Assembly: GCF_002087085.1 (NCBI RefSeq)
Contig: NZ_MWQY01000002.1
Coordinates: forward strand, 248,001 to 312,000
Direction of reading: 5' to 3'
Length of the DNA stretch: 64,000 nt
Below are positions 47,375-63,745 of this stretch, piece after piece; position 1 is the first letter of the stretch, and each line of letters starts with the position of its first letter. The position numbers were made by a program, and so were the translations under genes. The notes under the pieces were generated by a model, which had not been told where the DNA came from, did not search any database, and saw only the letters and a list, made by a program, of their open reading frames with translations.

Positions 47375-48397
47375 CTACTCAGTAGTACCCGCCTGTTCAG
47401 ATTGTATGGCATCCAGTCGAATACATGCAACCATATGCCCCTTTCCTTTATCCACCAGTTCAGGTACACGCTTTTTGCACTCCTCCGCCGCAAATCTGCA
47501 GCGCGTGTGAAATCGGCACCCGGAAGGCGGATCTATTGCATTTGAGACATCTCCTTTCAGAATAATCCTCTTTCTGCTTCGCTCGATGTCGGGGTCAGCT
47601 TCCGGGACTGCAGAAAGCAGGGCCGTGGTGTAGGGATGCAATGGATTATCGAAAATCTCCTTCTTGTCAGCGATCTCCATGAGTTTACCCAGATACATAA
47701 CCGCGACACGATCGCTTATATGCCGTACAACCGCCAGGTCATGGGCAATAAACAGGTAGGTAAGATTATATTTTTCCTGAATGTCCATCAGCAGATTTAT
47801 TATCTGGGCCTGAATGGACACATCGAGAGCAGAAATCGGCTCATCGCATACAATAAACTCAGGATCACTGGCCAGAGCCCTGGCTATACAGATACGCTGT
47901 CGCTGCCCCCCGGAAAACTCGTGGGGATAGCGGTTGGCGACATTCGGACTCAGACCCACATCCCGGATCAGCTGAGCGACTTTTGGCTGGATTTCCTTCT
48001 CTGAGCAGATCTTGTGTACCCGCATGGGTTCTGCCAGGGCTTCACCGATAGTCATACGAGGATTCAAGGTGGAATAAGGGTCCTGAAAGACGATCTGCAC
48101 GTTCTTACGTACGCTCCGGAGTTCCTTTTCCTTGAGTTTGGATAGATCGACTCCGTCATATTCAACTGTTCCGGAGGTAGGCCGATACAGCTGCAGCAGG
48201 GTAAAGCCGGTTGTAGATTTCCCGCAGCCCGACTCACCCACCAGTCCGAGGGTTTCTCCCCGGTAAATATCGAAGGAAACTCCATCTATGGCATGCACGA
48301 TTGCCGATTTTTCACCAAAGGCACCGATTTTGACTGGAAACTCTTTTACCAGGTTTTTAACCCGCATTATCGGCTGTCGGCTTTCTGTTTCAGCCAT
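47375..48397 (-). CDS. Opp/Dpp-type ABC transporter ATP-binding protein
   Basis: GESGCGKST, FSGGQRQR, DEPISALD, CRFHTRC. Confidence 0.95.
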   Translation of the reverse strand: MAETESRQPIMRVKNLVKEFPVKIGAFGEKSAIVHAIDGVSFDIYRGETLGLVGESGCGKSTTGFTLLQLYRPTSGTVEYDGVDLSKLKEKELRSVRKNVQIVFQDPYSTLNPRMTIGEALAEPMRVHKICSEKEIQPKVAQLIRDVGLSPNVANRYPHEFSGGQRQRICIARALASDPEFIVCDEPISALDVSIQAQIINLLMDIQEKYNLTYLFIAHDLAVVRHISDRVAVMYLGKLMEIADKKEIFDNPLHPYTTALLSAVPEADPDIERSRKRIILKGDVSNAIDPPSGCRFHTRCRFAAEECKKRVPELVDKGKGHMVACIRLDAIQSEQAGTTE

Positions 48398-49395
48398 TAC
48401 CGCACCTCCCCGGTTTTAATATCAACCCAGCAGGCAATCCTGTGCCGCGATCCCGACTCCGCCCCGGGGATTATTTCCAGAGGCGGAACCTGTTTCGCGC
48501 AGATCTCCTTTTTGAAGGAACAGCGTGGCGCAAAAGGACAGCCCGTCGGTTTTACAAAAAGATTCGGAGGAGCTCCGCCTATGGAAGGCAGTCGGCTGCC
48601 CGCTTCAGTCTTGAGGCTGGGTATTGATTTCAGGAGTCCCAGGGTGTATGGATGCCGGGGGTCCTTGTAAATATCATCGAGCTTTGCCTCTTCTACAACG
48701 AAACCTGAATACATGACCATTATCCGGTCAACCATTCCGGCAAGGAGGCTGAGGTCATGGGTAATCCAGATAATGGATGTATTCATCTTCTCCCGCAGAT
48801 CCTTGACCAGCTCTACGATCTGGGCCTGTATGGTTACATCCAGTGCCGTCGTTGGTTCATCGGCGATAACCAGGGATGGTTCCCCCAAAAGCGCCATGGC
48901 GATCATAACGCGCTGCCGCATACCGCCGGAAAGCTGATGCGGGTACTCGTAGAGGCGATGCTCGGCGTTGGAAATACCAACCAGTTCAAGGTATTTTGCC
49001 GCTCGTTGCATAGCCTCGGTTTTTTTAATACTTTTATGATACATAAGACCTTCGCAAAGCTGTTTTCCGATTTTCATAAAGGGATTCAGCGATGTCATGG
49101 GATCCTGAAAAATCATCCCCACCTTCGAACCCCGTATTCTGTTCATTTCCGTTGTATTTGCCTTGCTGATATCTTTTCCGTCCAGAACGACACGACCGTT
49201 CGTAATTTCTGCGGACGGGGGGAGCAGTTTAATAAGGCTCATCATGGATACACTCTTGCCGCATCCGGACTCACCGACCACCCCCAGCATCTCTCCCTTA
49301 TCAAGGGTAAAAGAGACACCGTTTACTGCATACACAAAACCGTTTCTGGCTTTAAATCGTGTCTGCAGGTTCTCAACTTCCAGCAGTTTAGCCAC
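48397..49395 (-). CDS. Opp/Dpp-type ABC transporter ATP-binding protein
   Basis: GESGCGKSV, LSGGMRQR, DEPTTALD, CPFAPRC. Confidence 0.95.
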   Translation of the reverse strand: MAKLLEVENLQTRFKARNGFVYAVNGVSFTLDKGEMLGVVGESGCGKSVSMMSLIKLLPPSAEITNGRVVLDGKDISKANTTEMNRIRGSKVGMIFQDPMTSLNPFMKIGKQLCEGLMYHKSIKKTEAMQRAAKYLELVGISNAEHRLYEYPHQLSGGMRQRVMIAMALLGEPSLVIADEPTTALDVTIQAQIVELVKDLREKMNTSIIWITHDLSLLAGMVDRIMVMYSGFVVEEAKLDDIYKDPRHPYTLGLLKSIPSLKTEAGSRLPSIGGAPPNLFVKPTGCPFAPRCSFKKEICAKQVPPLEIIPGAESGSRHRIACWVDIKTGEVR

Positions 49396-49427
49396 TGGTA
49401 TCCCCCTTTCTCTGTCTGATCATTCTG

Positions 49428-50381
49428 TTACTTCCATTGCCGCGGGTTCAGGGCGTCATTCAATCCATCCCCAAGAAAACTGAATGCAATAATTACGACA
49501 GCCAGTACAATGGCGGGAGCAGCCAGAATGTGGGGATATAACTGCCATACCCGCAGTCCATCGGAAATCATGTTTCCCCAGCTTGGTATGGGAGGGCGGA
49601 CACCTACACCGAGGAAGCTGAAGGAGGATTCGAAGACCATGGCCTCTCCCAGTGAGGCACTCACAAACACGATAATCGGTCCAAGGGCATTGGGTACCAC
49701 GTACTTGCGCACGAGCTTTGAGGTAGGAACACCGAGGGCCCTGGCGGCCAGAACGTAATTCTTGTTTCGGATAGACAGAACCTGCCCCCGTATTATACGA
49801 GCAGCCTTGGGCCATTTGATAAGTGCGAGAGAACCGAACACCAGGACAAAATCGGCCCAGATGGTCTGACGGAAGAATTCGTTTCCCGTCAGAAGAAACT
49901 GTGCATCCATCCAGTTTACCAGCCGCGGCTTAAGGGACACGTTGATTACAATAACCAGCAGCAACGAAGGGATCGACATGGTAACGTCGATAAGCCAGCT
50001 TATGAAGGAATCAACCTTCCCGCCGAAATACCCGGCAATTGATCCCATAATCAATCCGATAATCAGACTCAATATGGTCGTTGAAAAAGCCACGATTACT
50101 GCAGTACGAGCACCGTAAATAACCCGACTCAATATATCCCTGCCAAGATCATCGGTACCAAACCAGTGCTGCCACGAAGGAGCCTGATTCCTGGCCTGAA
50201 GGTCCTGGGACAGAAAATCGTAGGGTGTAATATACGGACCGAAGAGTGCAATGAAAAACAGAAGAAAAACGATGGCGAGACCGATTATTGCAAGTTTATT
50301 GGCAACAAGGCGATCAAAAGCATCTTTCAGAAGGTTGTACTGTTTTTCTTCCTGCTCAAGCACAAGAGCTTTATCTTCCAT
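49428..50381 (-). CDS. Opp/Dpp-type ABC transporter permease (OppC-like)
   Basis: HWFGTDDLGRD, YVLAARALG, SWGNMI, GDGLNDALNPR. Confidence 0.95.
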   Translation of the reverse strand: MEDKALVLEQEEKQYNLLKDAFDRLVANKLAIIGLAIVFLLFFIALFGPYITPYDFLSQDLQARNQAPSWQHWFGTDDLGRDILSRVIYGARTAVIVAFSTTILSLIIGLIMGSIAGYFGGKVDSFISWLIDVTMSIPSLLLVIVINVSLKPRLVNWMDAQFLLTGNEFFRQTIWADFVLVFGSLALIKWPKAARIIRGQVLSIRNKNYVLAARALGVPTSKLVRKYVVPNALGPIIVFVSASLGEAMVFESSFSFLGVGVRPPIPSWGNMISDGLRVWQLYPHILAAPAIVLAVVIIAFSFLGDGLNDALNPRQWK

Positions 50382-51337
50382 TACTCATCTCCTGTTTTTT
50401 TGGCGGCAGCCCTGGGATCAAGCAGAGGATAGGCTATATCCACCAGCAGATTCGAAGCCATGACTACGGCGGAAAAAATAAAGACAATAGCCAGGATCAC
50501 CGGATAGTCCGAGGATTTTATTGCAGTTTCTGTCAAACGGCCCAGACCGGGAAGTCCGAATACCTTTTCAATAAGAATGGAGTTGTTCAGGGTCGCAATT
50601 ACCAGGAGCCCGATCTGGCTAACCACGGGGGTCATTACCGGGCGAAGTATATGACGAAAAACCACGATATGCCGCGGAAGGCCCTTGGCCCTGGCGGTGC
50701 GAACGTAATCTTCACTCAGGACTTCCAGTACCCCCGCCCGCGCCTGTCGGATAATCAGGGCCATGGGATTGAGTCCCAGTACAAGGAGCGGCACAATAAC
50801 CTGTGGACTGAAGAGCCCCTCCCAGCCGTAGGGTACATCCATTCCCATAACCAGAACGAGAAAAACAATCAGAAGAGGACCGGCGACAAAGACCGGCACC
50901 CCCCAGACCATAAGAGCGAACCCGACGATTATGTTATCCACCAGTTTATTTTGGTTCAGAGCTGCAATAACTCCGAGAAGTATTCCTATTAATGATAGAA
51001 GAAAGATCGCCGACAGTCCTATCTGAAAGGTTACCGGAACAGCGGCCTTGAGCATCGAGTTTACCGAACGGCCGGAAACCAGGGAGTTTCCGAAATTTCC
51101 GTGTAGAATATTCCAGACATAACCACCGAACTGTACCAGGAAGGGTCGATTAAGGCCGGCGGATTCACGTATGGCTTCAACGCGAGCTTCATCGTAGGCG
51201 ACATCTCCGGGGGCACGAAGAAAAATCAGTTTAATCGGGTCCCCGGCGCCGAAAAAAACAAGGGCGTAAATAAGCAAAAGTATAAACAGCACCGATGGAA
51301 TCCAGCGGAGCAGCCTATTCAATATATAGCGTCCCAT
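50381..51337 (-). CDS. Opp/Dpp-type ABC transporter permease (OppB-like)
   Basis: GNFGNS, DYVRTARAKG, EKVFGLPGLG, DIAYPLLDPR. Confidence 0.95.
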   Translation of the reverse strand: MGRYILNRLLRWIPSVLFILLLIYALVFFGAGDPIKLIFLRAPGDVAYDEARVEAIRESAGLNRPFLVQFGGYVWNILHGNFGNSLVSGRSVNSMLKAAVPVTFQIGLSAIFLLSLIGILLGVIAALNQNKLVDNIIVGFALMVWGVPVFVAGPLLIVFLVLVMGMDVPYGWEGLFSPQVIVPLLVLGLNPMALIIRQARAGVLEVLSEDYVRTARAKGLPRHIVVFRHILRPVMTPVVSQIGLLVIATLNNSILIEKVFGLPGLGRLTETAIKSSDYPVILAIVFIFSAVVMASNLLVDIAYPLLDPRAAAKKTGDE

Positions 51338-51406: not shown

Positions 51407-53029
51407 TTACGGCTTCATTGACTCGTCAATACTCACATTCCAGGGCTCGATAACCTGCCAGTCATCGTTCTTGTCGAAGTTCATAACCCAGGGCATGGCC
51501 CATTTGGACATGACATCATAGTAATAGGGAATGTAGTTCCATTCGTCCCGGAAGATCCGCTGAGCTTCCCGGGCAAGTTCGATTCTTGCGGGATCTTTAA
51601 CTCCCTTTCCGGATGCCTCTTCCAGAAGAGAATCAATTTTGGGATTTTTGTATCCCCCCATCTTGACGGTTGCATTTCCCGAACCGGAATAAATAGAACC
51701 CATCAGATAGGAAACGGCATCGGGAACACGGGTCCCGACATCGTCACGAAAGATCTGTACACTTTTCTGGTCGGGACCGGAGTAGGTCTCGATGGCGGGT
51801 TTCATTTCCACGCCCTGAATACCGAGGATGCTTCTCCACTGTTCGGCTATGTACTGCGCTGCCGCTTCATGAGTGGGAGTACTAATTCCTACAAACATGA
51901 TTTTTGGCAGTTTTGCAGCACTGCCGTATTTGGATGCGGCAAGAGCAGCTTTGGCAGCCTCCGGATCAAAGGGATACTCGGGATAATCAGGATCTACACC
52001 GGGAACCTTGTTCAGGATCTGGGTAGCCGGGGTAAAAGGTCCGTCCGGGAAGGCTGCAAGGGCAAGCTCTTCCTTGTTGACCGACATGATCAGTGCCTTG
52101 CGCACGTTGATGTCGTCCATGGGAGGCTTATGCGCATCCAGCCAGAACTGCTGGCCCTTGGCAAGAGGAGGTCCGCCAAGAAAGCCGGGGCCAAGATCCT
52201 GGATAATCGTGGGAGTAATCAGCTCGGTGTGGGCATCCATTTCTCCGCGTTTCAGCATAAGGGTAGCCGTACTTGCGTCGGAAACGGTTTTAATTACGAT
52301 CTTGTCGAGCTTCGGTGCAGGACCAAAGAAGTTGGGATTCGGAACCATCACAATAATTCCCTGATCAAGATCCATGGATTCCGGCATGAAGGGACCGGAT
52401 ACAACTACTCCGTTGTCCGGATGCCACCATTCAGATTTTTCCCGACCGGAAGCATCCTCAGCCTGGGAAATCTTTACCGGAGGAATCAGGGCTGTCGAGA
52501 TCTTCTGATCGAAAATAGGATCGGGAGAAGACAGTGTAACCACAATGGTCTTGGCATCTTTAACAGCAAGCCCGGTCATGTCGTCAGCTTTGCCAAGCTT
52601 TACGTCGTCAAAGCCCTTGACCCCGCTGAGAAAGAGGTCAATTCGGGCATGCTTGGTATCCGGACGGGCACACAGGTTCCAGGTTCCCACAACATCTTCC
52701 ACGGTTATGGCTGAGCCGTCGGAGAAGACCGCATCGGGATTCATTTTCAGTGTCCAGGTTTTGTACGAGGAATCCGACTCTGCGCTGGAAAGAACATAGG
52801 GGGTGATATTCCCGTCCTTGTCGAAGTACATGGGGGCTGCCCACCAGAGGGACTGCCAGCGGGCGGAGTGTCCTCCTCCCTGCAGGGGCGACCAGTTCTG
52901 CTGCAGCACCGGATGGGCAATATTCAGGACCTGCCCTGCTTCTTCAGCAGCGGCATCTCCCTGTCCGCCTGCAAATACAAGACCCGTCAGTGCGAGTCCG
53001 AACAAAAGGATCAAGATACATCTTTTCAT
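51407..53029 (-). CDS. ABC transporter substrate-binding protein, family 5
   Basis: Signal peptide ...VFAGGQGD, FSDGSAITVEDV, SGPF, DINVRKAL. Confidence 0.9.
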   Translation of the reverse strand: MKRCILILLFGLALTGLVFAGGQGDAAAEEAGQVLNIAHPVLQQNWSPLQGGGHSARWQSLWWAAPMYFDKDGNITPYVLSSAESDSSYKTWTLKMNPDAVFSDGSAITVEDVVGTWNLCARPDTKHARIDLFLSGVKGFDDVKLGKADDMTGLAVKDAKTIVVTLSSPDPIFDQKISTALIPPVKISQAEDASGREKSEWWHPDNGVVVSGPFMPESMDLDQGIIVMVPNPNFFGPAPKLDKIVIKTVSDASTATLMLKRGEMDAHTELITPTIIQDLGPGFLGGPPLAKGQQFWLDAHKPPMDDINVRKALIMSVNKEELALAAFPDGPFTPATQILNKVPGVDPDYPEYPFDPEAAKAALAASKYGSAAKLPKIMFVGISTPTHEAAAQYIAEQWRSILGIQGVEMKPAIETYSGPDQKSVQIFRDDVGTRVPDAVSYLMGSIYSGSGNATVKMGGYKNPKIDSLLEEASGKGVKDPARIELAREAQRIFRDEWNYIPYYYDVMSKWAMPWVMNFDKNDDWQVIEPWNVSIDESMKP

Positions 53030-53053: not shown

Positions 53054-53950
53054 TTAAGCATGCCAGGCACGCTCAAGACCAAAATTGTCAATAACCTCGT
53101 TCAATGCCGCATCTACTTCAGTCGATGGAACAAGGGATGGCAGCCGGTTGTTTCCAACCTCCCTGTCAAGCAGGTAGAGGATACGCTTGACCATGGCGGG
53201 GGGATATCCCGGAGCATAGAGGGCTTCCCTGAACCGGTTGACCCTTTCCTGGGCGGCATCGGCCGCTTCGGCGTCGCCCGATTCAAAGCTGTCCGCCACA
53301 TTACGGATCCAGGATGGAATCACATTCGCCAGACCGGATACACATCCGGAAGCACCCTTCCGCAGTCCATAGAGGATAAGTGAATCGGTTCCGGCGTAGA
53401 GTTCAAATCCCGGGTTTTCCGCCACTACCTGGGCCAGAGCATCCAGGCGTTCCTTTTTTCCGCTGGAATCCTTGACTCCCTTTACGTTCGGATGTTTTGC
53501 CAGTCGGGCGACGGTGTCCACATCTATCGAGTTTCCCGTCCGCGCAGGGATCTCGTAAATGAACACGGGAACCGGAAGGGAATCAGCTATCCGCGAGTAA
53601 TGACGGTAGAGCCCTTCCTGGGTACAGGAGATGAAATATGGGGTAATGGCGGCGACGGCCTCAACCCCGATCCGGGCAAACTCCCTGGCCAGGAGAATTG
53701 TTTCGTGGGTTGACGGGCAGCCCGCATTCGCAATCAGCCGGTTTTTCCCCTGCGTAACGGCAGCACAGGATTCCACGACTTTTACCTTTTCATCGAAAGT
53801 AAGGCTGGAAAAATCTCCGTTGGTGCCGCAGGCGAATATGTCGTTTCCGGCTGCTATCTGCCGGCGGGCCTCATCCCTGATCTTTTCGAAATTGACGGAT
53901 TCGTCTTCCCGGAAGGCCGTAACCAGGGCTACAAAGGTCGAAATACTCAT
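53054..53950 (-). CDS. DapA/NAL-family class I aldolase or dehydratase
   Basis: GTNGD, TPYF, IYEIPARTG, Schiff-base KDSS; ATG 53950 behind AAGGAG. Confidence 0.9.
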   Translation of the reverse strand: MSISTFVALVTAFREDESVNFEKIRDEARRQIAAGNDIFACGTNGDFSSLTFDEKVKVVESCAAVTQGKNRLIANAGCPSTHETILLAREFARIGVEAVAAITPYFISCTQEGLYRHYSRIADSLPVPVFIYEIPARTGNSIDVDTVARLAKHPNVKGVKDSSGKKERLDALAQVVAENPGFELYAGTDSLILYGLRKGASGCVSGLANVIPSWIRNVADSFESGDAEAADAAQERVNRFREALYAPGYPPAMVKRILYLLDREVGNNRLPSLVPSTEVDAALNEVIDNFGLERAWHA

Positions 53951-53963
53951 TAACTGTTCTCCT

Positions 53964-55124
53964 TTAACGTATACTCTCATAGAGTGCTTCAATATCTTTA
54001 ATGCTCATCTCTTTCGGATTATTGTTTAAAAGACGTTTGACCTGAAAAGCCGCTTCCGATAGTTCGGGGATTTTATCCGGTTTTATGCCGAACTCGGCCA
54101 TACTGGAGGGGATTTTAATCTCCCGCATCATTTTACGAAGATGCTCGATATATCTGTCCACTGTAGAGGAAGGATCAGCACCTGGTTCAATGCCGACTGT
54201 CCCGGCAACCTTCAGAAGCTTGTCCCGGACCGCGGTCTTGTTGAACTCGATGACCGGTACCAGCAGAATGGCATTGGAAACACCATGGGGAATCCGGTAG
54301 CGGCCGCCCAGGGGGTAGGACAGAGCGTGGACGGCGGTCGTTCCGGAAGAGGCAATGGCCATTCCTCCATAGAAAGATCCCAGCAGCATATCCGCCCGGG
54401 CCTGCATATTATCACCGTTCCTGCAGGCTTCACGGATCGCTCCGTCGATAAGGCGAATCCCCTCCAGCGCGACCATGTCGCTGTGGGGATTGGCTTTGTT
54501 GGAGATATAGCACTCAAGAACATGGCAATAGGCATCAACACCGGTCGATGCAGTAAGTGCAGGAGGAAGGGTTCTGGTCACGGCGGGATCGAGCACCACA
54601 TAATCCGGCATGAAGAAGGGACTGACCACCCCTACCTTGAGCTGTTTTTCCTTTAAAGCGACAATCGCATTGGGTGTCGATTCCGATCCGGTGCCGGCTG
54701 TTGTTGGAACCATAACACAAGGCAGCCCCGCCCCGGGAGCACCGGACTCCATAAGGGTAGCGACGGTACCTCCCCACTTCAGCAGAATCGAAAGAAACTT
54801 GGCGGTATCCAGTACGCTGCCGCCGCCCAGACCGACGATACAGCAGATATTCCTGCTGCCCAGGGATGAGGCCAGGGTCTCGATATCTTCGGAATATGGC
54901 TCCGGAGGAACCGAGTCGGCAAGTTCGGTCCTGAAACCTGCATCTGCAATACTCTTTGCAAGGGATGAGGGAATACCGGTTTTGCCGAAACCGGAATCCG
55001 TCAAGACAAGAACTGTTCCGCTTTTTTCGGGATTCAATATGGAAAGAAGGATTTCCGGAACGCGTTTGAGTTCACCCTCCCCAAAGAATACGTTTTTTGG
55101 AGCTGAAAAAGAAAAGCCTTTCAC
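53964..55124 (-). CDS. Iron-containing alcohol dehydrogenase
   Basis: GLGGGSVLD, PTTAGTGSE, DAYCH, HALSY, IPHG. Confidence 0.93.
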   Translation of the reverse strand: MKGFSFSAPKNVFFGEGELKRVPEILLSILNPEKSGTVLVLTDSGFGKTGIPSSLAKSIADAGFRTELADSVPPEPYSEDIETLASSLGSRNICCIVGLGGGSVLDTAKFLSILLKWGGTVATLMESGAPGAGLPCVMVPTTAGTGSESTPNAIVALKEKQLKVGVVSPFFMPDYVVLDPAVTRTLPPALTASTGVDAYCHVLECYISNKANPHSDMVALEGIRLIDGAIREACRNGDNMQARADMLLGSFYGGMAIASSGTTAVHALSYPLGGRYRIPHGVSNAILLVPVIEFNKTAVRDKLLKVAGTVGIEPGADPSSTVDRYIEHLRKMMREIKIPSSMAEFGIKPDKIPELSEAAFQVKRLLNNNPKEMSIKDIEALYESIR

Positions 55125-55509: not shown

Positions 55510-57015
55510 CTACTCGGGCAAAACGGCAATCTCGCGCTTCAGGGTTGCCCGGATGTTAAGGGTAACGGTAACCGCTGTAATGGCAAGAAAAACAAGTGCT
55601 ATTGGCCGTGAGAAGAGAGAAAAAGCATCCATGGCAAACAGCTGAGACGATTTTCTAAGATTCATCTCGAACATGGGCCCGAGTATGAAACCGAGGATCA
55701 TTGGCGTCAACGGAACCCCGGCCTTGATAAGACCGTACCCGACAAGCCCGAACAGGAGGACACCCCAGACGTCGAAAATACTGTTACTGTCGCCGATGGC
55801 ACCGACACAACAAAGAATCACTATCAGAGGAAACAGGTACTGCTTGGGAATTTTCAGGATCCGTATAAATACCCTCATTCCCCCGAACTCGAGAATAAGC
55901 ATGGCTACGGCAGCTATGACCATCGCGACAAAAATGCCATATACCACCGGTCCGTTCCTGTCGAAAATGAGCGGTCCCGGTGCGATATCATGAACCATGA
56001 GACCGCCGAGCAGCATGGCAGTAACTGCATCACCGGGAATTCCCAGGGACAACAGTGGAATCATGGCACCCCCAATACTCGCATTATTCGCCGATTCCGA
56101 TGCCACAACACCATCCATTATACCAGTACCGAACTTGTCCGAATGTTTGGAGCTGTTTTTCGCGACCGTGTACGAAATCATACAGGCCGGACCACCGCCG
56201 ATCCCGGGCAGAATCCCGATACCAACGCCGATCAGGGCTGAACGTATCGTGTTGAACCACTGGGAGAAGAATTCCTTCAAGGAAAAACCGAATCCTCTGA
56301 TTTTGAAATCCTCATTTACTTCCGCTTCGTTATTGTTACGTACCTGTTCTGCATATTTTACCACTTCGGTTATTGCAAAGAGACCGATCAGAAAAACCAG
56401 CAGCTTGAATCCCGCAGTCAGGTTAACAGATCCGAAGGTAAAACGGGCTCTGGAGTCTATCGGCGATAGCCCTATAGTGGCGAACATGCAGCCGAGAATG
56501 GCGCTGATAAGACCTTTTACAATATCATCACCCGTTAATGCTATTACAAGGGAAAGGGAGAAGATTGCCAGCGCACAATATTCATATGCTCCGAATTTCA
56601 GTGCAAAACTCGCAACCTTCGGGGCCATAAACACCAGAATCCCGATTCCGATCAGGGTGCCGAAGAAGGAAAAAACAATTCCTGTACCAAGGGCTTTGCC
56701 GGCCATACCATTCTTCGCCATGGGTGCCCCGTCAAAGCAGGTCGCAACAGACGAAGGTGTACCCGGAATATTGAGCAGAATAGCCGAGATAAGGCCTCCC
56801 GAAATACCGCCTATATACAGGGCCACAAGGGTTGAAATTCCCTGTATGGGGGTCATCGTATAGGTCATGGGAAGAAACATCACTATCGACATCGTGGCAG
56901 TAAGTCCCGGAACAGATCCGAAAACAATACCCACCCCGACTCCGGAAAAAATCAATAACAGGATAAACGGATTGAAGGCGACGTTCGTCAATCCTTCTAT
57001 AAACGCAGAATACAT
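55510..57015 (-). CDS. tctA: Tripartite tricarboxylate transporter large permease
   Basis: GSVPGL, LLNIPGTPSS...DG, ESANNA, LGIPG. Confidence 0.93.
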   Translation of the reverse strand: MYSAFIEGLTNVAFNPFILLLIFSGVGVGIVFGSVPGLTATMSIVMFLPMTYTMTPIQGISTLVALYIGGISGGLISAILLNIPGTPSSVATCFDGAPMAKNGMAGKALGTGIVFSFFGTLIGIGILVFMAPKVASFALKFGAYEYCALAIFSLSLVIALTGDDIVKGLISAILGCMFATIGLSPIDSRARFTFGSVNLTAGFKLLVFLIGLFAITEVVKYAEQVRNNNEAEVNEDFKIRGFGFSLKEFFSQWFNTIRSALIGVGIGILPGIGGGPACMISYTVAKNSSKHSDKFGTGIMDGVVASESANNASIGGAMIPLLSLGIPGDAVTAMLLGGLMVHDIAPGPLIFDRNGPVVYGIFVAMVIAAVAMLILEFGGMRVFIRILKIPKQYLFPLIVILCCVGAIGDSNSIFDVWGVLLFGLVGYGLIKAGVPLTPMILGFILGPMFEMNLRKSSQLFAMDAFSLFSRPIALVFLAITAVTVTLNIRATLKREIAVLPE

Positions 57016-57030
57016 TTGACGTCTCCTCCT

Positions 57031-57537
57031 TTAGAATCCGAGAATGCCCCTGGGCAGAAGAACAGATAACAATCTTACAAAGAGAAAATCGATCACCACA
57101 GAAGAAACGATCGCAATAATCGCTGCGGTCCTGTAATTCCTCTTACCTGGAGGTGTAAGTAATACTGATAAAAAGAAGATAAAAAGAATCGACATTATCG
57201 TGAAACCGACATATCCCAATAAAGCGGTATATACCCCTAGACCGACAAAGGTCAGAATCACTTCGTAATTTCGGTTATAGAAATCTCTTAAGGTCAGTTT
57301 TTCTGTTGAAATATCCATGCCCTCTTTTATAGCAATCCTCCTGCCCCTGAACCCTCGCAATAAGAGACTGAGGCTCAACGCCAGAAGACAGATACCCCAA
57401 AATCTCGGAATGAATGTGGCATCCAGAGGAGTGGCCCCCAATCCAAGAAAAGGCACGATATCAAAAGAAAAATACAGATAGAGTACAGAAAAAATGGACA
57501 AGGAACTGCCTGCCACAATGTTGGTTCGATAGGTCAA
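57031..57537 (-). CDS. tctB: Tripartite tricarboxylate transporter small subunit
   Basis: 4-5 TM helices, FIPR, C-terminal L.V.LPRG; TTG start behind AAGGAGG. Confidence 0.85.
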   Translation of the reverse strand: MTYRTNIVAGSSLSIFSVLYLYFSFDIVPFLGLGATPLDATFIPRFWGICLLALSLSLLLRGFRGRRIAIKEGMDISTEKLTLRDFYNRNYEVILTFVGLGVYTALLGYVGFTIMSILFIFFLSVLLTPPGKRNYRTAAIIAIVSSVVIDFLFVRLLSVLLPRGILGF

Positions 57538-57588
57538 AACCTTCCTCCTTATGGATTTGAACTCACATAAAACCCGTACCGGTTCTCC

Positions 57589-57739
57589 AGGGCATCTCCA
57601 AAAACTACTCTTTTTCCCATTTTCAGGGTCGTCAAGATTTCCCGCGGTCCTCAACTCATGTTATCACAAGAATTTGCGGTCCTTACAAAATCTTTCTTTC
57701 CTGACTATGAAAAAACTACCACGTTCTTAGAGCTTCCCT
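57589..57739. mobile_element. 151-bp MITE/REP-like element forming a long imperfect hairpin
   Basis: Ends AGGGCATCTCCAAAAAC / GTTCTTAGAGCTTCCCT, nested inverted segments, related short copy at 12375..12414. Confidence 0.6.
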
Positions 57740-57743
57740 CTAT

Positions 57744-59036
57744 TTAAACGAACTCCAGGAGATTCCCTTCGTTATCGAATTTCATTTTCCTGGCATTTTC
57801 CACTATTTCTACCCCTTCAGTCTCCATAGCTTCCTGCTGCATCGCTTCAGATATATAGAGTTCGTCAAGACTCAGGGTATTTTTAATAAGGACGATTCTT
57901 ACCGTCTTCTTTTCAATATTTGTACATGTTTTTATTGCCGCTTTAATAGCCAGTTCATCATCTTCCATTACCATCGCTATTTTTCCCGGCGTAATAACGG
58001 TGGATGTAAGCATATTCGGATAAAGGGCAGTAAAATCGATCTTGTTAAACAGTCGCAGGGTAGTTACATCGGCCATCCCCACTCCCATTGCATTTCCATG
58101 GGATTTATCGGAGACATCGAGAACAACGGTCTTCTGCTTATAAATACCACCCGACCCATAGGGGGTTGCCCAGGTCCCGGTAACATTCGGATCCATACCA
58201 CTCCCGGAAAAATTCTTCCCGATCTGGGTTACAACAAGTACATCCGTTTCGGGAAAAAGGATTCTTGGCATCCGCTTTTTGGCATACTCCAAAAGAGGAG
58301 GTTCCTTTTCCGCGATCTCCTCCCCTTTGATAACTTCAATACGGCAGGTCTGATCATAAGCGTTCTCAATGACACCGACACCGAAAACTACATTATTATT
58401 ATTCATTATGACGCGGGCAAACTCCGGGATTCTTTCCTTGAAGGCGCCGAATCCCGCGGCATGAAGGGAATCCGCTCCCTTCTGTTTGCCAAGTCCGATG
58501 CCGAGCATCTTAAATAGTCCGGACTCATAGGGACCGCGAAATGCCGTGTGGGCTTTTATGCGTCCCACCACAACGATTGAATCAGACTCAGCTGTAAATT
58601 TATCGAAATATACAGGCAAACCATCCGGGGTGTAACCGGTAACGACGGTATCCATTGAGGAGTGAATCGGACAGGCGCAGAATTCTTCTGTAATACCGTA
58701 GTCTTCCAGGATCTCTTTCTGTCCCTCTGCCGAAGAACCTCCATGACTGCCCATGGCAGGAACAATGTACGGATGGGCCCCACAGCTTGTAATAAATGCA
58801 GCCAGCTCCCGGAGAATCACGTTCATGTTCGCAATTTCACGACTGCTCCCGGTCAGGACCACCCTGTCACCCTGTCGTATCCTTGCACTCAGGGACTGTT
58901 CTTTGAGTTGAGTTCTGATTGTTCCAGGAATATCCTCAACTCTGCTTCCGTCGAAGTGCTGCCGAACCTTTATCACTCCCGGTATTGGTACATCTTTGAG
59001 AAGATGTCGTATATTTGTCTGTTTCTTTATCTCCAT
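57744..59036 (-). CDS. Lactate racemase domain (DUF2088) protein, divergent LarA subfamily
   Basis: GSSREIAN, PAMGSHGG, RIKAHTAF, ESGLFKMLGIGLGK, GKNFSGSGMDPNV. Confidence 0.75.
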   Translation of the reverse strand: MEIKKQTNIRHLLKDVPIPGVIKVRQHFDGSRVEDIPGTIRTQLKEQSLSARIRQGDRVVLTGSSREIANMNVILRELAAFITSCGAHPYIVPAMGSHGGSSAEGQKEILEDYGITEEFCACPIHSSMDTVVTGYTPDGLPVYFDKFTAESDSIVVVGRIKAHTAFRGPYESGLFKMLGIGLGKQKGADSLHAAGFGAFKERIPEFARVIMNNNNVVFGVGVIENAYDQTCRIEVIKGEEIAEKEPPLLEYAKKRMPRILFPETDVLVVTQIGKNFSGSGMDPNVTGTWATPYGSGGIYKQKTVVLDVSDKSHGNAMGVGMADVTTLRLFNKIDFTALYPNMLTSTVITPGKIAMVMEDDELAIKAAIKTCTNIEKKTVRIVLIKNTLSLDELYISEAMQQEAMETEGVEIVENARKMKFDNEGNLLEFV

Positions 59037-59065
59037 AATTCCTGCTCAGCTCCGTGCATATAATT

Positions 59066-59095
59066 AACCCGAAAAGCCTTAAGGCTTTTCGGGTT
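59066..59095. repeat. Perfect 30-bp palindrome after tctC
   Basis: AACCCGAAAAGCCTT-AAGGCTTTTCGGGTT. Confidence 0.85.
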
Positions 59096-59112
59096 TTAAC
59101 CTGTATTTTCAG

Positions 59113-60090
59113 TTATCGCAGGTATTTGGAGAATTTCATGAAATGTTCACGCTGCTTCATCAGCTCCGCAATGGTGTCATCTACACTCAGAGCCCAGGGA
59201 TCCTGCAGGTTGAATTTTCGACACTCTGCAGCGTATTCAGGGTCATTGTTGACAACATCCAGAATCGCTGCGTTCATCTGTTCAACGATCTCCCTGGGAG
59301 TTCCTTTAGGAGCAAGACACACATACATGGTGTCCATAACAAGATCAGGAACACCGGTCTTGCTGGCCGAAGGAACATTCTTGAGCAGTGAGGGAGAATC
59401 GCTCAGCAATGTAGCAAGGGTTCTGATCTGCCCTGATTCTATATACTGTTTCGCCGTCGCATAGGGAACGATAGTCGCATCAACATGTTTTCCCAGAAGA
59501 GCAGTCATCCGGGATGCACCGTCACCCTGATCCATGACCGCAAACTCCGCACCTGACTGAGCCAGTATGACCGAAGCGATATAAACACCACCGCCGGTGG
59601 ATATTCCAAAGCGGATAGTATTCGGATTGGCTTTTGAAGCTTTTACCAGATCGTCAATGGACTGGTAGGGAGAATCGGCGGGAACGATAATGTTTTCGCC
59701 GGACTGCTTGCCGTAAATAGCGACCGGTTCAAAGGCATCCCATCCGAAAGAAGAAAGCCCGGTAGCCTCATTACCCATCACAGCCGTCGTATTGGTCATG
59801 ATAAAGGTATATCCATCGGGTTTGGCATTCCGGTACTGTTCCATGGCGATATTACCGTTGCTTCCGGTAACGTTGGTGGGAACAAGGGAAACCCCAAGTT
59901 TCTTTTCCACAAACCGGCTGATCAGACGACCGTTATAATCCGTATCTCCACCGGCACCATGGGTACCGATAATGGTGATATTCTGCTTTGGCCATTCAGC
60001 GGCCCCACTGCCTGCACTTTCCGATTTCCCTTCGGAAAAAACTGAAACTGTAAACAATAATACAAGCGCAGCTACAAGAAATTTTTTCAT
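59113..60090 (-). CDS. tctC: Tripartite tricarboxylate transporter substrate-binding protein
   Basis: Signal peptide, WP...I.II, AGGDTD, NVTGSNG, PDGYT, APKGTP; ATG 60090 behind GAGGGG. Confidence 0.9.
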   Translation of the reverse strand: MKKFLVAALVLLFTVSVFSEGKSESAGSGAAEWPKQNITIIGTHGAGGDTDYNGRLISRFVEKKLGVSLVPTNVTGSNGNIAMEQYRNAKPDGYTFIMTNTTAVMGNEATGLSSFGWDAFEPVAIYGKQSGENIIVPADSPYQSIDDLVKASKANPNTIRFGISTGGGVYIASVILAQSGAEFAVMDQGDGASRMTALLGKHVDATIVPYATAKQYIESGQIRTLATLLSDSPSLLKNVPSASKTGVPDLVMDTMYVCLAPKGTPREIVEQMNAAILDVVNNDPEYAAECRKFNLQDPWALSVDDTIAELMKQREHFMKFSKYLR

Positions 60091-60142
60091 GTAACCCCTC
60101 CTTAATAAATTATCCGATCCAGGACCGGATTGCGTAACATTG

Positions 60143-61120
60143 TCAAACACCCTTCCATTTCGGGTGCTCATAGACCTCCGGGTTGCATACATGAGGCCAT
60201 TTTTCTCCCTCAATAACCGCGAGGGTTCCCTGTACAGCCATGGTGACAACGGCGCTTGTCGTCTCCCTGGTCTGAGCCGCCATATGCGGACTGACGATGA
60301 GGTTGCTCAGCTTCATTAAGGGGTGCTCAGCTTTCATGGGTTCATCGGCCAGCACGTCCACCGCCGCTCCGGCTATACTTTCGTTCTTCAGGGCTTCAAA
60401 GAGTGCCGTTTCATCGACTATATCGCCCCGTGCACAGTTTATGAGAAATGCACTCTTCTTCATTGCAGCGAGGATTTGACTATTGATCATGTTACGGGTT
60501 TCCGGCATGGACGGCATATGGAGGCTCACGTAATCCCCAGCCTCAACAGCCTGTTGCAGGTCCCCTGCATAGGTGTATCCCAGAGCTTCCACGTCTTTTC
60601 GGTCGAGGAAGGGATCGTAGGCGCATACTTTCATGCCCACACCGGCGCAGAGCTGCGCGACGGTCCTGCCGATATTTCCCAGGCCTATTACACTGACTGT
60701 TTTTCCCAGCAGTTCGACGGCGGCATACTTGTTGCGAATGCCGAAATTCCCTTTTCTCGTCTCGACATCGCTTTCCACAATATTTTTTGATATGCCGAAG
60801 ATCAGGGCCAGAGTATGCTCGGCAACTGCCCGGGCATTGGCGGCGGGACAGATCACAACCGGAATACCCCGCTCCGTGGCGGCCTGAACATCAACATTAT
60901 CAACACCCACACCCGGACGGGTTATTACCTTGAGCTTTTCACAGGCATCAATAGCCTTACGATCGATCTTCCCAATTCGCAGAATGAAACCGTCGGCTTT
61001 TTTTAAATCCTCGATAATGATGTCACTGTCTCCATTATTCGGAATTATAAGATCTGCCTTACCGTTGATGGCATCCATCCCCGGTTTGTACAAGGGATGC
61101 GAGATCAGGACAGTAATCAT
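60143..61120 (-). CDS. D-2-hydroxyacid dehydrogenase (short PGDH-like, no ACT domain)
   Basis: GVGVDNVD, AVAEH, GLGNIG, INCARG, DV...EP, SPHMAA. Confidence 0.9.
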   Translation of the reverse strand: MITVLISHPLYKPGMDAINGKADLIIPNNGDSDIIIEDLKKADGFILRIGKIDRKAIDACEKLKVITRPGVGVDNVDVQAATERGIPVVICPAANARAVAEHTLALIFGISKNIVESDVETRKGNFGIRNKYAAVELLGKTVSVIGLGNIGRTVAQLCAGVGMKVCAYDPFLDRKDVEALGYTYAGDLQQAVEAGDYVSLHMPSMPETRNMINSQILAAMKKSAFLINCARGDIVDETALFEALKNESIAGAAVDVLADEPMKAEHPLMKLSNLIVSPHMAAQTRETTSAVVTMAVQGTLAVIEGEKWPHVCNPEVYEHPKWKGV

Positions 61121-61124
61121 ATCT

Positions 61125-62150
61125 TTACACCATCCTCACGCCCATCTCGATGGCCTGCAGCATGCTCTCAGGATTTGCCCGGCCTTCGCCGGCCTTTCCG
61201 AAGGCGGTACCGTGGTCCACGGAGGAGCGGATAATCGGCAGCCCCAGGGTAATGTTGACCCCGGACATGGAGAGCCAGGTATTGGTGTTACGGTCGTAGT
61301 TGAATCCCGCCAGCTTGGTGGGGATATGCCCCTGGTCGTGATACTGAACAACCACTATGTCGTACTGCCCGCCCTTCATTTTGGAAAAGACCGTATCCGG
61401 AGGGATCGGTCCTTCCACCGTCATGCCTTCGGCAACAGCCTGCTCGATGGCGGGAATAATCTCATCGATCTCTTCCCGGCCGAACATGCCGTTTTCACCG
61501 GCGTGGGGATTCAGACCTGCCACGGCAATTCTGGGCTGTTCGATGCCCAGCCGCTTCAGGGCCTCGTCCGCCAGCTTGATAACCCGGTAAACCCGTTCCT
61601 TTTTGCAGCGGTTTATTGCCTCCTGCAGGGATACGTGGGTGGAGACATGGACAACCCGGAAGTCCCCTTCGGCGAGCATCATGGCGTAATCCCTGGTCCC
61701 GGTAAGACGGGCGTAGATCTCAGTGTGTCCGGCTTCCTTGATACCGGCGGAGTTAATGGCCTCCTTGTTTATGGGGCCGGTGATAGTCGCATCAACTTCT
61801 TTTGCAAGGGCGAGCTGGATAACCTTCTCGATATATTCATAGCTGGCCTTTCCGGTCATGGCGGAAACGGTTTTATATTTCAGCCTGCTCATGTCTATAT
61901 TCTGCATATCGAGCACGTCTATGGTTCCGAATTCGTACCTGCCCTCCGCCGGAGACGAAACGGCCCTGGTTTTCAGGGAAAGCCCGGAAAACTCAATGGC
62001 CGCTTCCATGACTTTCAGATCACAGACTGCCAGGGGCCTGCAGATATCGTATACGTGCTTTTCATTCAAGGCCTTGGCGGTAATCTCCGGTCCGATACCC
62101 GCCGGATCGCCAACGCTGATTCCTAAAATTGGTCTCTTCTCAGTTTTCAT
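61125..62150 (-). CDS. pdxA: PdxA family dehydrogenase (PdxA2-type, tetronate 4-phosphate dehydrogenase)
   Basis: GDPAGIGPEI, GHTE, STH, LNPHAGE, YHDQGHIP.K, RSSVDHGTAF; adjacent to a DUF1537 kinase. Confidence 0.92.
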   Translation of the reverse strand: MKTEKRPILGISVGDPAGIGPEITAKALNEKHVYDICRPLAVCDLKVMEAAIEFSGLSLKTRAVSSPAEGRYEFGTIDVLDMQNIDMSRLKYKTVSAMTGKASYEYIEKVIQLALAKEVDATITGPINKEAINSAGIKEAGHTEIYARLTGTRDYAMMLAEGDFRVVHVSTHVSLQEAINRCKKERVYRVIKLADEALKRLGIEQPRIAVAGLNPHAGENGMFGREEIDEIIPAIEQAVAEGMTVEGPIPPDTVFSKMKGGQYDIVVVQYHDQGHIPTKLAGFNYDRNTNTWLSMSGVNITLGLPIIRSSVDHGTAFGKAGEGRANPESMLQAIEMGVRMV

Positions 62151-62172
62151 GGTCTGTTCCTTCTAGAAATAT

Positions 62173-63477
62173 TCATTTACGTTCCGGCTGCTGTTCCTGT
62201 CTGCCGGTAACGATTTTACACACCTGTGTCATTGCATTTTTCCTGCCGAAACCGCCGGCCTTTGAAATAAGGTAGACCGGCTTATCGGCATAGGGGGTAT
62301 CAAACCTTCCAATGGGGATGCCGGGCAGGATTTCGTCGAGTAATTCCACACCCTTGACTTTCAGTGACTCACTGACTCCGGCGGCAGTATTGCCCCCGGT
62401 AATAAATACTGCTTCAATCTGGCGCTGCATAAAGATACGGGCAACCAGCCTTCCCAGGAAACTGGAAACCCGCTCTCCCAGCTCCTTCTCATTTATACCC
62501 AGTTCCGCTGCATATGCGATGTCGTTCTTGTATTCACAGTCACCATCGAAGGTTTTGATCAGCACCGGAACATCCTTCCTCGACTGAGAATCCTCATGCA
62601 GAAGACGGGACAGTTCCTTTTCTTCGTCGTTAAGCAGGTTCTGCATGGCGACACAAAGGGATACAGGATCGATACTTTTTTCAAGTTCCGCCACCTGGGT
62701 TCTGGTAGTTTCCGTTACACTCCCTGCAACAAACAGCAGCTTCCCCTCATCGATAACGGGGAACTCCGGAGAGGACCCTTCCCCTGCGTCGGTGAGGGCT
62801 TCTGCAAGACCGGAGGCACCGGCAAACAGAACCGACTCATCTTCCCGGGCTGAAGCAAGGATCCGGAGGTCCTCCAGTGTTTCTGCATCGGCGACGATGG
62901 CCCGTGCGCCCTCCTGTCTCAGCTCTTTGAATCGTGTTAGAAAGGCATCCGAACCTTTGCGTATCGTTTCAAGATCGATATGCCCAACGCTGTTGCGAAA
63001 CCACCGTTCAAGAAGTCCCGGGACAAATGCAGACGCAACAGGAGTGAAAGGATCGATCTGGTGTCCGTTCTCACCGATGGGCACCCCGTTTACCAGACAG
63101 TTGCCTGCCACAACAGTACGCCCGTTCTTGGGAGCCGAAGGGGCCACAAGGGCGCAATCAAAATCTCCGGCATCCATGACGGCGGCAATCTCTTCGGGAA
63201 CATTTCCGCGAATGGTTGAATCGATTTTTTTGAAAAACTGCCGTACACCAAGTCTTCTGCAGGTTTCGACTACACTCCGCACCTTGTCATAGGAATCACT
63301 GGGAAGCATGAACCTGGATTCGGTACTGACGACAAGTACGTTATATAATTCAAGATCAACACCGGAATCCCAGTTCTGGAGGGCGAGAAACGGCGTATAT
63401 CCGTTCTTTCTGAACTGTACGGCAGAATCGCCGGCTCCGGTAAAATCATCAGCTATTATGCAAAGTTTTAAACCCAT
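62173..63477 (-). CDS. Four-carbon acid sugar kinase (DUF1537)
   Basis: IADDFTGAGD, TESR, KKIDSTIRGN, GASGLA, TGGNTA, KAGGFG. Confidence 0.92.
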   Translation of the reverse strand: MGLKLCIIADDFTGAGDSAVQFRKNGYTPFLALQNWDSGVDLELYNVLVVSTESRFMLPSDSYDKVRSVVETCRRLGVRQFFKKIDSTIRGNVPEEIAAVMDAGDFDCALVAPSAPKNGRTVVAGNCLVNGVPIGENGHQIDPFTPVASAFVPGLLERWFRNSVGHIDLETIRKGSDAFLTRFKELRQEGARAIVADAETLEDLRILASAREDESVLFAGASGLAEALTDAGEGSSPEFPVIDEGKLLFVAGSVTETTRTQVAELEKSIDPVSLCVAMQNLLNDEEKELSRLLHEDSQSRKDVPVLIKTFDGDCEYKNDIAYAAELGINEKELGERVSSFLGRLVARIFMQRQIEAVFITGGNTAAGVSESLKVKGVELLDEILPGIPIGRFDTPYADKPVYLISKAGGFGRKNAMTQVCKIVTGRQEQQPERK

Positions 63478-63491
63478 ACTTGGAAGTATTA

Positions 63492-63508
63492 AGCAATGAA
63501 CGTGCCAA
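63492..63508 (-). promoter_or_regulatory. sigma54 (-24/-12) promoter of the DUF1537-pdxA2-tct operon
   Basis: TTGGCACG-TTCA-TTGCT, a full match to the YTGGCACG-N4-TTGCW consensus. Confidence 0.85.
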
Positions 63509-63693
63509 GGTCACAGGTTTTTCATTTTCATTTTTCCATTTTCTCCCCGTTATCCGTAACGGAGACAAAGCATCGTCCATACTCGTATCTAAGTCTTTAC
63601 ACTGATGTACTTTAAGAAATTCCCCGAAACTGAAGGGCCGCACACCCGACGAAAAGTGTCTGAACCGGGATTATAGACTTTTGCGGAAAACAT

Positions 63694-63724
63694 CCGCTGG
63701 TGATGATTATATCACCACCAGCGG
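63694..63724 (-). terminator. Hairpin terminator of the rightmost gene
   Basis: CCGCTGGTGGTGAT-ATA-ATCATCACCAGCGG then ATGTTTT on the minus strand. Confidence 0.7.
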
Positions 63725-63745
63725 AGTAAAATATCCACATTGGGA

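Follow-up and report, generated by a model that had tools for sequence, protein, structure and literature searches.

Enzymes of the LarA family invert C2 of 2-hydroxy acids. D-threonate and D-erythronate, acid sugars with four carbons, are reportedly turned into dihydroxyacetone phosphate (DHAP) and CO2 by DtnK or DenK together with PdxA2, as Zhang et al. are said to have described in PNAS in 2016. In the 64,000-nucleotide stretch analyzed here (positions 248,001 to 312,000 of contig NZ_MWQY01000002.1, assembly GCF_002087085.1; referred to as the window) a gene for a LarA-superfamily protein of group 22 lies in one cluster with a DUF1537-family kinase and a PdxA2-type dehydrogenase. We tentatively read this operon as one for the uptake and catabolism of a four-carbon acid sugar, in which the group-22 LarA homologue would act as a C2 epimerase feeding the kinase/PdxA2 route, an interpretation that ranks first among those considered, although we hold it to be slightly more doubtful than probable.

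The closest described relatives of the protein are the group-22 LarA homologues of Desguin 2020 (PMC7583248), in whose dataset the group has 20 members and is given as "Unknown function"; an initial annotation of the window had rightly described the subfamily as poorly characterised. At LarA positions D72, R75, H108, H174, F175, F176, K184 and H200 that dataset shows the signature A R H H T D K H for the group. Among the neighbors of group-22 genes, Table S1 of the study gives SDR proteins at 45% and IlvD/Edd dehydratases, LarE and TRAP transporters at 30% each, besides sugar kinases. DUF1537 and PdxA are absent from these published neighbors, which cover the 20 members and three genes on either side; the links of group 22 to DUF1537/PdxA2 and to the tripartite tricarboxylate transporter (TTT) come from the present analysis. 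The terms "PdxA" and "DUF1537" did not occur in the main text of PMC7583248 or PMC11770544. In the literature searched no report of a LarA homologue acting on tetronates was found. The combination of nickel-pincer and threonate led only to PMC11770544, according to which some LarA homologues epimerise 4-deoxy-threonate/erythronate as a side activity, and nothing was found for lactate racemase with PdxA. Within the reach of this search, with subscription papers and PDF supplements lying outside it, the link between group 22, DUF1537 and PdxA2 is not in print.

Two described pathways resemble the remainder of the locus. The DUF1537 + PdxA2 pathways for D-threonate and D-erythronate (the DUF1537 kinase/PdxA2 pathway is also treated in PMC10580937 and PMC12994016) have the same adjacent kinase and PdxA2-type dehydrogenase, and DHAP and CO2 would be expected here as well. 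In contrast to these pathways, the window and nine other loci add a group-22 LarA gene and a TTT or TRAP transporter, and in this genus a D-isomer-specific 2-hydroxyacid dehydrogenase (2HADH), a DHDPS-family enzyme and an Fe-dependent alcohol dehydrogenase (Fe-ADH) are added as well. The "aldolase-DUF1537" pathway that breaks down L-threonate as well as D-erythronate (LtnD/DenD, OtnI, OtnK and OtnC in Ralstonia and Brucella, as presented in PMC10580937) shares the DUF1537 kinase, the four-carbon acid sugars and DHAP as the end. However, neither the OtnI isomerase nor the class II aldolase/decarboxylase was found by Pfam in the window cluster, and the window kinase favors the D-threonate kinase model over that of 3-oxo-tetronate kinase (259 vs 179 bits).

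Family calls for the open reading frames (ORFs) of the window were made with Pfam and NCBIfam. In the order of transcription the cluster consists of the following genes:

62173..63477, minus strand: acid-sugar kinase of the DUF1537 family (SBD_N + NBD_C; Pfam SBD_N 194.5 bits, NBD_C 102.4 bits)
61125..62150, minus strand: PdxA-family dehydrogenase of the PdxA2 type (Pfam PdxA 347.4 bits)
60143..61120, minus strand: 2HADH, phosphoglycerate dehydrogenase/McyI-like (Pfam 2-Hacid_dh_C 192.4 bits, 2-Hacid_dh 97.5 bits)
59113..60090, minus strand: TctC, periplasmic binding protein of the TTT (Pfam TctC 106.3 bits)
57744..59036, minus strand: LarA-superfamily protein of group 22 (Lar_N/DUF2088 gene), candidate C2 epimerase (NCBIfam NF052515, Pfam Lar_N)
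57031..57537, minus strand: TctB, small membrane subunit (Pfam TctB 54.2 bits)
55510..57015, minus strand: TctA, large membrane subunit (Pfam TctA 481.8 bits)
53964..55124, minus strand: Fe-ADH (Pfam Fe-ADH + ADH_Fe_C)
53054..53992, minus strand: class I pyruvate aldolase/lyase of the DHDPS family (Pfam DHDPS 200.1 bits)

The longest ORF of tctC extends to 60249 and that of tctB to 57654; the likely starts are an ATG at 60090 and a TTG at 57537, each behind AAGGAGG. With these starts the gaps between the genes from the kinase to TctA measure 4–206 nt, the one between kinase and PdxA being 22 nt, and the DHDPS-family gene overlaps the Fe-ADH gene by 29 nt. All three TTT components are encoded here, with the LarA-like gene inserted between tctC and tctB as at L021, the locus of its closest relative. 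Coordinates and strand of this gene and its position between tctC and tctB are as first annotated. The genes that the annotation had named for the operon and the coordinates it gave were also correct, while 2HADH, Fe-ADH and the DHDPS-family gene had been omitted.

With NF052515, to which NCBI assigns just the generic name "nickel pincer cofactor-dependent isomerase, group 22", the LarA-like protein scores 518.7 bits (cut-off 400); its Pfam Lar_N match is weak (34.9 bits). The group is large, comprising 7919 proteins at E ≤1e-5 among 7999 candidates scored. An AF2 model of the protein (pLDDT 94.4, pTM 0.91) was compared to the PDB with Foldseek. LarA-family chains account for every one of the 16 best matches listed (TM about 0.4–0.55, E 2e-11 to 1e-7), at only 12–19% identity, and the predicted structure has the two-domain LarA fold. 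With the sequence of the protein alone phmmer found no LarA among the PDB sequences and a profile was needed; the PDB matches of a profile of 39 members are LarA-family chains only, though weak (E 0.08–0.6). In an alignment of these 39 group-22 members R66, H98, H163, K176 and H192 are invariant. H98 and H163 fall on the catalytic H108 and H174 of LarA, both in the alignment of the profile with PDB chains and in hhalign of the group-22 profile against three canonical LarA homologues of the source genome (probability 85.8%, E 5.4e-6). The latter also places K176 on K184 (tether), H192 on H200 (nickel ligand) and R66 on R75. The conserved residues thus agree with the group-22 signature of the Desguin 2020 dataset, with R, H, H, K and H at LarA 75, 108, 174, 184 and 200. 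Fold, histidine pair and cofactor ligands are also shared with the characterised enzymes GntE (D-gluconate 2-epimerase, LarAH19/20), LarA, Mar, Hgr and the broad-spectrum LarAHs; these enzymes invert C2 of a sugar acid, likewise within a catabolic cluster. Since catalytic histidines and cofactor ligands are kept, C2 inversion is mechanistically plausible. The alignments thus indicate that the site for the nickel-pincer cofactor and the two bases needed to invert C2 are retained, together with a substrate site unlike that of known LarAs.

The DUF1537 kinase of the window directly adjoins the PdxA2-type dehydrogenase, as in the described pathway, and is the sole DUF1537 gene of the source genome (G000; phmmer, six-frame ORFs). 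Its top NCBIfam model is D-threonate kinase with 259.2 bits, below the cut-off of 450; 3-oxo-tetronate kinase gives 178.9 bits. By phmmer the PdxA protein scores 278.7 bits with 2hi1 and 264.9 bits with 6e85, solved chains of PdxA2/D-threonate-4-phosphate dehydrogenase, to which it is nearer than to the PdxA of E. coli (180.4 bits). It reaches 318.9 bits against a cut-off of 583 with NF002891 (D-threonate 4-phosphate dehydrogenase) and passes the general model TIGR00557 (340.1 vs 290.35). The expected PdxA2 reaction would be oxidative decarboxylation of a 4-phospho-tetronate to DHAP and CO2. Recycling of 4-hydroxythreonine for vitamin B6 was set aside, as it offers no function for the LarA-like enzyme, for the transporter or for the remaining enzymes. 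Of the latter, 2HADH has McyI and short phosphoglycerate dehydrogenases as closest solved relatives, and the DHDPS-family protein, one of five family members in G000, is closest to DapA, then to 4-hydroxy-2-oxoglutarate aldolase.

We compared G000 to five genomes of the same genus (G001–G005) and labelled individual loci with L-numbers. G000 contains nine Lar_N matches: four of group 22, one of group 18 ("putative hexonate epimerase"), three canonical and one unclassified. All of these are intact, i.e. four group-22 and five other open frames. The three other group-22 paralogues score 521–526 bits with NF052515, and the four copies are mutually 44–57% identical. Their contexts are TRAP genes, TctCBA-GntR-HpcH aldolase-2HADH (contig C1) and TctBA-GntR-Zn-dependent alcohol dehydrogenase (Zn-ADH), each of which is repeated in genomes of the genus. 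A group-22 LarA gene beside DUF1537 and PdxA-family genes is found in G000 and in three of the five other genomes. In G002 and G005 the gene order is kinase-PdxA2-FeADH-2HADH-DHDPS-TctC-TctB-TctA-LarA. G001 has two adjacent blocks, kinase-PdxA2-PdxA-FeADH-DHDPS and kinase-2HADH-DHDPS-TctCBA-LarA. The kinase-PdxA2 pair of G004 adjoins TRAP genes in a stretch without a group-22 gene, and G003 gave no group-22 match. In G001, G002 and G005 the clusters with kinase and PdxA2 contain counterparts of Fe-ADH (616–749 bits) and a DHDPS-family gene, and counterparts of 2HADH (316–327 bits) adjoin group-22 LarA genes both within the genus and at L022/L023. The functional unit in the genus is thus a set of nine families that is reshuffled among species. 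One in-frame TGA each, inside the gene or at its edge, was seen in the group-22 match G005:C4:253212-254465 and the kinase match G004:C34:25803-27089.

Outside the genus, the window protein as query yielded 50 genome loci (39–72% identity) and 24 metagenome loci (41–54%); the metagenome scan did not reach the 60–72% relatives known from the homologue list. The closest relative, L021 with 72% identity, shows TctC-LarA-TctB-TctA as in the window, on a 5-kb contig that ends within tctC. A further homologue of 616 residues (P0058) carries both Lar_N/DUF362 and TctB Pfam domains and represents a fusion of LarA with TctB or else a gene call reading through the adjacency seen in the window. In a sample of the own phylum 13 of 301 genomes including G000 had matches, none of them above 47% identity outside G000. 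In another phylum, for which 401 genomes were searched, P0001 as query gave E ≤1e-140 in only 3 genomes. Group 22 occurs there in 89 genomes, DUF1537 in 89 and both in 37. DUF1537 was present in 37 of the 89 genomes with group 22 and in 52 of the 312 without, kinship being ignored in this comparison. At least 6 of the 135 group-22 matches listed lie within 10 kb of DUF1537 on the same contig, these counts being lower bounds because at most four candidates were scored per genome, and all six are accompanied by PdxA-family genes, as follows:

L113: PdxA-LarA-kinase-PdxA
L114: GH31-PdxA-DmpF-DmpG-altronate/galactarate-type dehydratase-LarA-kinase-PdxA
L115: LarA-kinase-PdxA-class II aldolase-Zn-ADH
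L116: dehydratase-canonical LarA-DctPQM-LarA-PanB-like-kinase-PdxA
L117: DeoR-kinase-PdxA-DctPQM (TRAP)-LarA, with no other recognisable gene
L118: kinase-PdxA-canonical LarA-PanB-like-PanE-like-DctPQM, with the group-22 gene opposite

The minimal operon L117 would fit a sequence of import, C2 epimerisation, 4-phosphorylation and oxidative decarboxylation.

Some of these clusters hold additional enzymes. Genes similar to PanB (ketopantoate hydroxymethyltransferase) or PanE (ketopantoate reductase) accompany LarA, DUF1537 and PdxA at L116:10090-10977, L118:9318-11235 and L113:13137-14087, and two of these three clusters also contain a canonical LarA homologue. By analogy with the 2HADH/DHDPS pair of the window, the PanB/PanE-like genes suggest a 2-oxo acid/hydroxymethyl branch. 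Analogous enzyme sets at kinase-linked loci are a PanE-like reductase with a PanB-like transferase and the aldolase DmpG with DmpF; at group-22 loci free of the kinase they are HpcH aldolase with 2HADH, and in L119 a DHDPS-family gene straight after LarA. Such sets point to a branch leading from a 2-hydroxy acid via the 2-oxo acid to aldol cleavage, where the LarA-like enzyme might deliver the D-isomer for the D-specific dehydrogenase. Two different PdxA-family genes per cluster were seen at L113 (7853-8854 and 11404-12375), L114 (4273-5301 and 11468-12439) and L097 (11094-13189), and such pairs might differ in stereospecificity.

In a rapidly computed maximum-likelihood tree (LG+G4, SH-aLRT) with 101 group-22 sequences, the copies linked to kinases are spread over at least three distinct clades. 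The first consists of L113–L118 and one context-less fragment (support 97), its inner order being unsure because long branches meet there; the second of the same-genus cluster copies (support 100). In the latter the copy of G005 is labelled "other" only because the retained one of the duplicate loci stops short of its kinase, which L099 shows 8 kb away. The third clade contains the window copy, L021 and metagenome proteins (support 93) and is sister to L022/L023 (support 99). The association of LarA, kinase and PdxA has thus arisen or been kept repeatedly. The TctA of the window scores 852 bits against that of L021 and about 530 against the TctAs of the same-genus clusters, and being far closer to L021 makes it look as if the TctC-LarA-TctB-TctA block was exchanged as a unit. 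Since different group-22 lineages were recruited to these same partners, kinase and PdxA2, a functional link is favored over inheritance of the neighborhood.

Next to the nine LarA homologues, the genes larB, larC and larE were searched in G000. LarC gave no match, LarE at best 29.5 bits (cut-off 150) and LarB at best 40.9 bits (cut-off 175), the latter match being PurE beside PurD, the sole AIRC-family gene. With the assembly 97.2% complete, larBCE may lie elsewhere in the genome. LarC is present in five of five same-genus genomes, and a contiguous larC-larE-larB, located behind a FecCD-type ABC transporter, in all four that were searched for the three genes (G001, G002, G004, G005). The site reads DeoR-FmdE-TrmO-FecCD-type ABC-LarC-LarE-LarB-x-aminotransferase-DUF1015 in G004; the syntenic site of G000 (G000:C56:138000-144000, L123) reads DeoR-MetE-LysR-ArgZ-like-DUF1015 on an unbroken contig. 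As both flanks are on one contig, the absence of larCEB from this site is real. An assembly gap as its cause was therefore rejected for the syntenic site, though not for the approximately 3% possibly unassembled. In the other phylum LarC was found in 64 of the 89 group-22-positive genomes compared to 166 of the 312 negative ones. The 25 group-22-positive genomes without a LarC match include many of unknown completeness; LarB above cut-off was found in none of the five of them checked (G352, G596, G693, G387, G569), of which G352 and G596 each appear to be one large contig.

The promoter region and hairpins of the cluster are as follows:

63693..63725, minus strand: terminator-like hairpin ending the upstream gene and marking the upstream operon border (15-pair stem with 8 GC pairs, then a T-rich tail)
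63493..63507, minus strand: sigma-54-type -24/-12 motif TGGCACGTTCATTGC, located upstream of the kinase gene at 16 nt from its ATG
59066..59095, minus strand: perfect 13-bp stem-loop without U-tract between tctC and the LarA-like gene, read from the sequence

As consensus of the sigma-54 -24/-12 elements we take TGGCAC-N5-TTGC, to which TGGCACGTTCATTGC is the sole exact match in the window (0.10 expected). The same type of motif stands upstream of five of five kinase genes in the clusters of the genus, so that a sigma-54 promoter ahead of the kinase gene is probable. Together with the terminator-like hairpin this backs the earlier claim of a transcription unit starting at the kinase. Two features call for caution regarding a single operon: the 385-nt gap between TctA and Fe-ADH and the stable hairpin that splits tctC from the LarA-like gene. 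The latter folds at -23.1 kcal/mol (z = -5.33; 0 of 200 shuffles fold as well) and may serve as mRNA stabiliser or attenuator. Co-transcription of the cluster genes is what we infer from this arrangement. A sigma-54 activator was not found within 11 kb past the window end; another group-22 paralogue of G000 adjoins a PrpR-type sigma-54 activator, and at this paralogue a sigma-54-type motif (L018:4474, plus strand) precedes TctB. A further motif (L099:9012, minus strand) precedes the 2HADH-DHDPS-TctCBA-LarA block of G005. The group-22 modules of this genus seem to be under sigma-54 control, as far as such motifs indicate.

In the route that we propose a tetronate would be imported by TctCBA. 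The group-22 LarA homologue, with the nickel-pincer nucleotide, would transiently oxidise C2 and return the hydride to the other face. This would interconvert C2 epimers, for which D-erythronate (2R,3R) and D-threonate (2S,3R) would be the simplest pair. O4 would then be phosphorylated by the DUF1537 kinase, and PdxA2 would oxidise C3 and decarboxylate the product to DHAP and CO2. In this way the epimerase would widen the range of stereoisomers usable by a single kinase/dehydrogenase pair. According to our own stereochemical reasoning the natural substrate of PdxA has the C2/C3 geometry of D-threonate, so that a kinase/PdxA2 pair tuned to D-threonate would need a C2 epimerase for D-erythronate. 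2HADH, the DHDPS-family enzyme and Fe-ADH could form a side branch leading from a 2-hydroxy acid to the 2-oxo acid, followed by aldol cleavage and reduction of the aldehyde. We infer the identity of the substrate, the direction in which flux runs, that the enzyme acts on the free acid rather than the phosphorylated one, and the roles of these three enzymes. An epimerase funnel for D-erythronate and D-threonate had already been put forward in the initial annotation. Its link between group 22 and DUF1537/PdxA2 is supported by the own genome, three of five genomes of the genus, six loci of the other phylum and at least three clades, while the two substrates keep the rank of a suggestion.

Several observations weigh against this route. 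In published pathways kinase and PdxA2 alone reportedly suffice, and the conserved 2HADH, DHDPS-family enzyme and Fe-ADH are given no role in it. Both kinase (259 vs 450) and PdxA (319 vs 583) remain under the NCBIfam equivalog cut-offs. Searching with the window proteins (phmmer), DUF1537/PdxA was found within 10 kb at 0 of the 50 genome and 0 of the 24 metagenome loci. The closely related L022/L023 (57–58% identity) have AraC next to LarA-2HADH-DUF386, and both kinase and PdxA are missing from the surrounding 10 kb. The window copy is not orthologous to the cluster copies of the genus (49–51% identity, different clade). Most group-22 copies are located in other contexts (TRAP, Zn-ADH, HpcH aldolase + 2HADH), and the family is thus not uniformly tied to tetronates. 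In contrast to the characterised LarA enzymes, D72, Q295 and K298 have no conserved counterpart in the window protein, which is distant from the solved chains as stated above: hhalign puts G287 and A290 in the columns of Q295 and K298 and a Ser at D72, with low alignment confidence there. As Q295/K298 lack an aligned counterpart, substrate binding differs from known LarAs; the role of Q295/K298/D72 could have passed to K274 and D282, which are invariant. Finally, larB, larC and larE were not found in the 97.2%-complete assembly despite nine LarA homologues.

The main alternative, which we regard as unlikely, yet worth serious attention, is that the LarA-like enzyme partners the adjacent D-2-hydroxyacid dehydrogenase. 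An L (2S) 2-hydroxy or deoxy sugar acid would be converted to its D (2R) form and oxidised to the 2-oxo acid, the DHDPS-family aldolase would yield pyruvate and an aldehyde, and Fe-ADH would reduce the latter, with kinase and PdxA2 forming a separate neighboring module. LarA is followed by 2HADH in L022 and L023 (316–320 bits) and paired with it in L040 and L073; in L119 (53% identity) a DHDPS-family gene comes directly after LarA, and the paralogue on contig C1 and its counterparts in the genus combine LarA, TctCBA, GntR, HpcH aldolase and 2HADH. In G001 the LarA/TTT/2HADH/DHDPS block is apart from that of kinase, PdxA2, Fe-ADH and DHDPS, and in G005 it is preceded by a separate sigma-54 motif. 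However, the LarA block of G001 includes a DUF1537 kinase of its own, and in L113–L115 and L117, where LarA is joined to kinase and PdxA, neither 2HADH nor DHDPS was detected. In the window, moreover, all genes from the kinase to TctA stand behind one sigma-54 motif with the short gaps given above, and the data name no candidate substrate for such a scheme. As candidate routes for the aldolase branch we considered one with C5–C7 deoxy sugar acids and one in which a 2-oxo-tetronate would give hydroxypyruvate and a C1 unit.

The enzyme could also act after the kinase and before PdxA2, interconverting 4-phospho-D-erythronate and 4-phospho-D-threonate. We consider this very improbable, as the characterised LarA homologues all use free 2-hydroxy acids according to PMC7583248 and PMC11770544, and transporter genes almost always adjoin the group-22 gene, as would suit an enzyme working on an imported compound. 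Nevertheless, a phosphate might be bound by the invariant basic residues R159 and K161 near the catalytic His and by the invariant K274, all lacking in canonical LarAs, the arrangement LarA-kinase-PdxA of L113–L115 leaves the order of reactions unfixed, and a phosphorylated sugar has been modelled in another divergent LarA subgroup, where it is called highly speculative (PMC12611868, 2025). It is improbable as well, to a somewhat lesser degree, that the protein is not a simple epimerase and carries out another hydride-mediated isomerisation of sugar acids (e.g. 2-hydroxy/3-oxo shifts), or that it is inactive here since the cofactor cannot be made. The missing larB, larC and larE of G000, the 25 of 89 other-phylum genomes without LarC, among them the five also without LarB above cut-off, and the unconserved substrate-binding residues all fit this idea, and other hydride chemistry has been raised for divergent groups in Desguin 2020 (PMC7583248). 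On the other hand, the protein has the two catalytic histidines that are characteristic of two-base inversion, whereas the groups suspected of other chemistry miss one; all nine frames are intact; LarE neighbors 30% of the group-22 genes in Table S1 of the same study; and LarC is commoner in group-22-positive genomes (64/89 vs 166/312).

We return to the group-22 homologue as an epimerase entry to DUF1537/PdxA2. A broader version of this reading, in our view a long shot, would combine it with paralogous PdxAs and the dehydrogenase/aldolase branch to funnel several stereoisomers of tetronates towards central metabolism, and would have a sizeable minority of carriers, including this organism, work without larBCE of their own. 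Such use would require uptake of the nickel-pincer cofactor of neighbors or another route of arming the enzyme. The absence of larBCE together with nine intact LarA homologues raises the question whether the nickel-pincer cofactor is shared between microbes, to which the same larC-less pattern in 25 of 89 genomes of the other phylum adds. The recurrent partnership with DUF1537/PdxA2 gives group 22 a concrete, purchasable and testable class of substrates. If the proposed route is true, 2-epimerisation of tetronates would be a new reaction in nickel-pincer enzymology, and a third step would be added to a pathway described so far with two enzymes.

Directly downstream of the cluster, between 42935 and 53029 of the window on the minus strand, three more units are located. 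An Opp/Dpp-type ABC transporter comprises a binding protein (51407-53029) and two permeases and two ATPases (47375-51337, minus strand); a nickel role of the binding protein is unsupported, its NikA-type matches being weak (58.8 bits vs a cut-off of 393). It is followed by a canonical LarA homologue at 46037-47308 on the minus strand (Lar_N 213.6 bits, with LarA_C) and a TRAP transporter DctPQM at 42935-45850, also on the minus strand. In G000 as a whole (phmmer, six-frame ORFs, E ≤1e-15) 37 DctM-like, 34 DctP-like, 8 TctA, 13 2HADH and 11 Fe-ADH proteins were counted, and the organism looks specialised in the uptake of organic acids.

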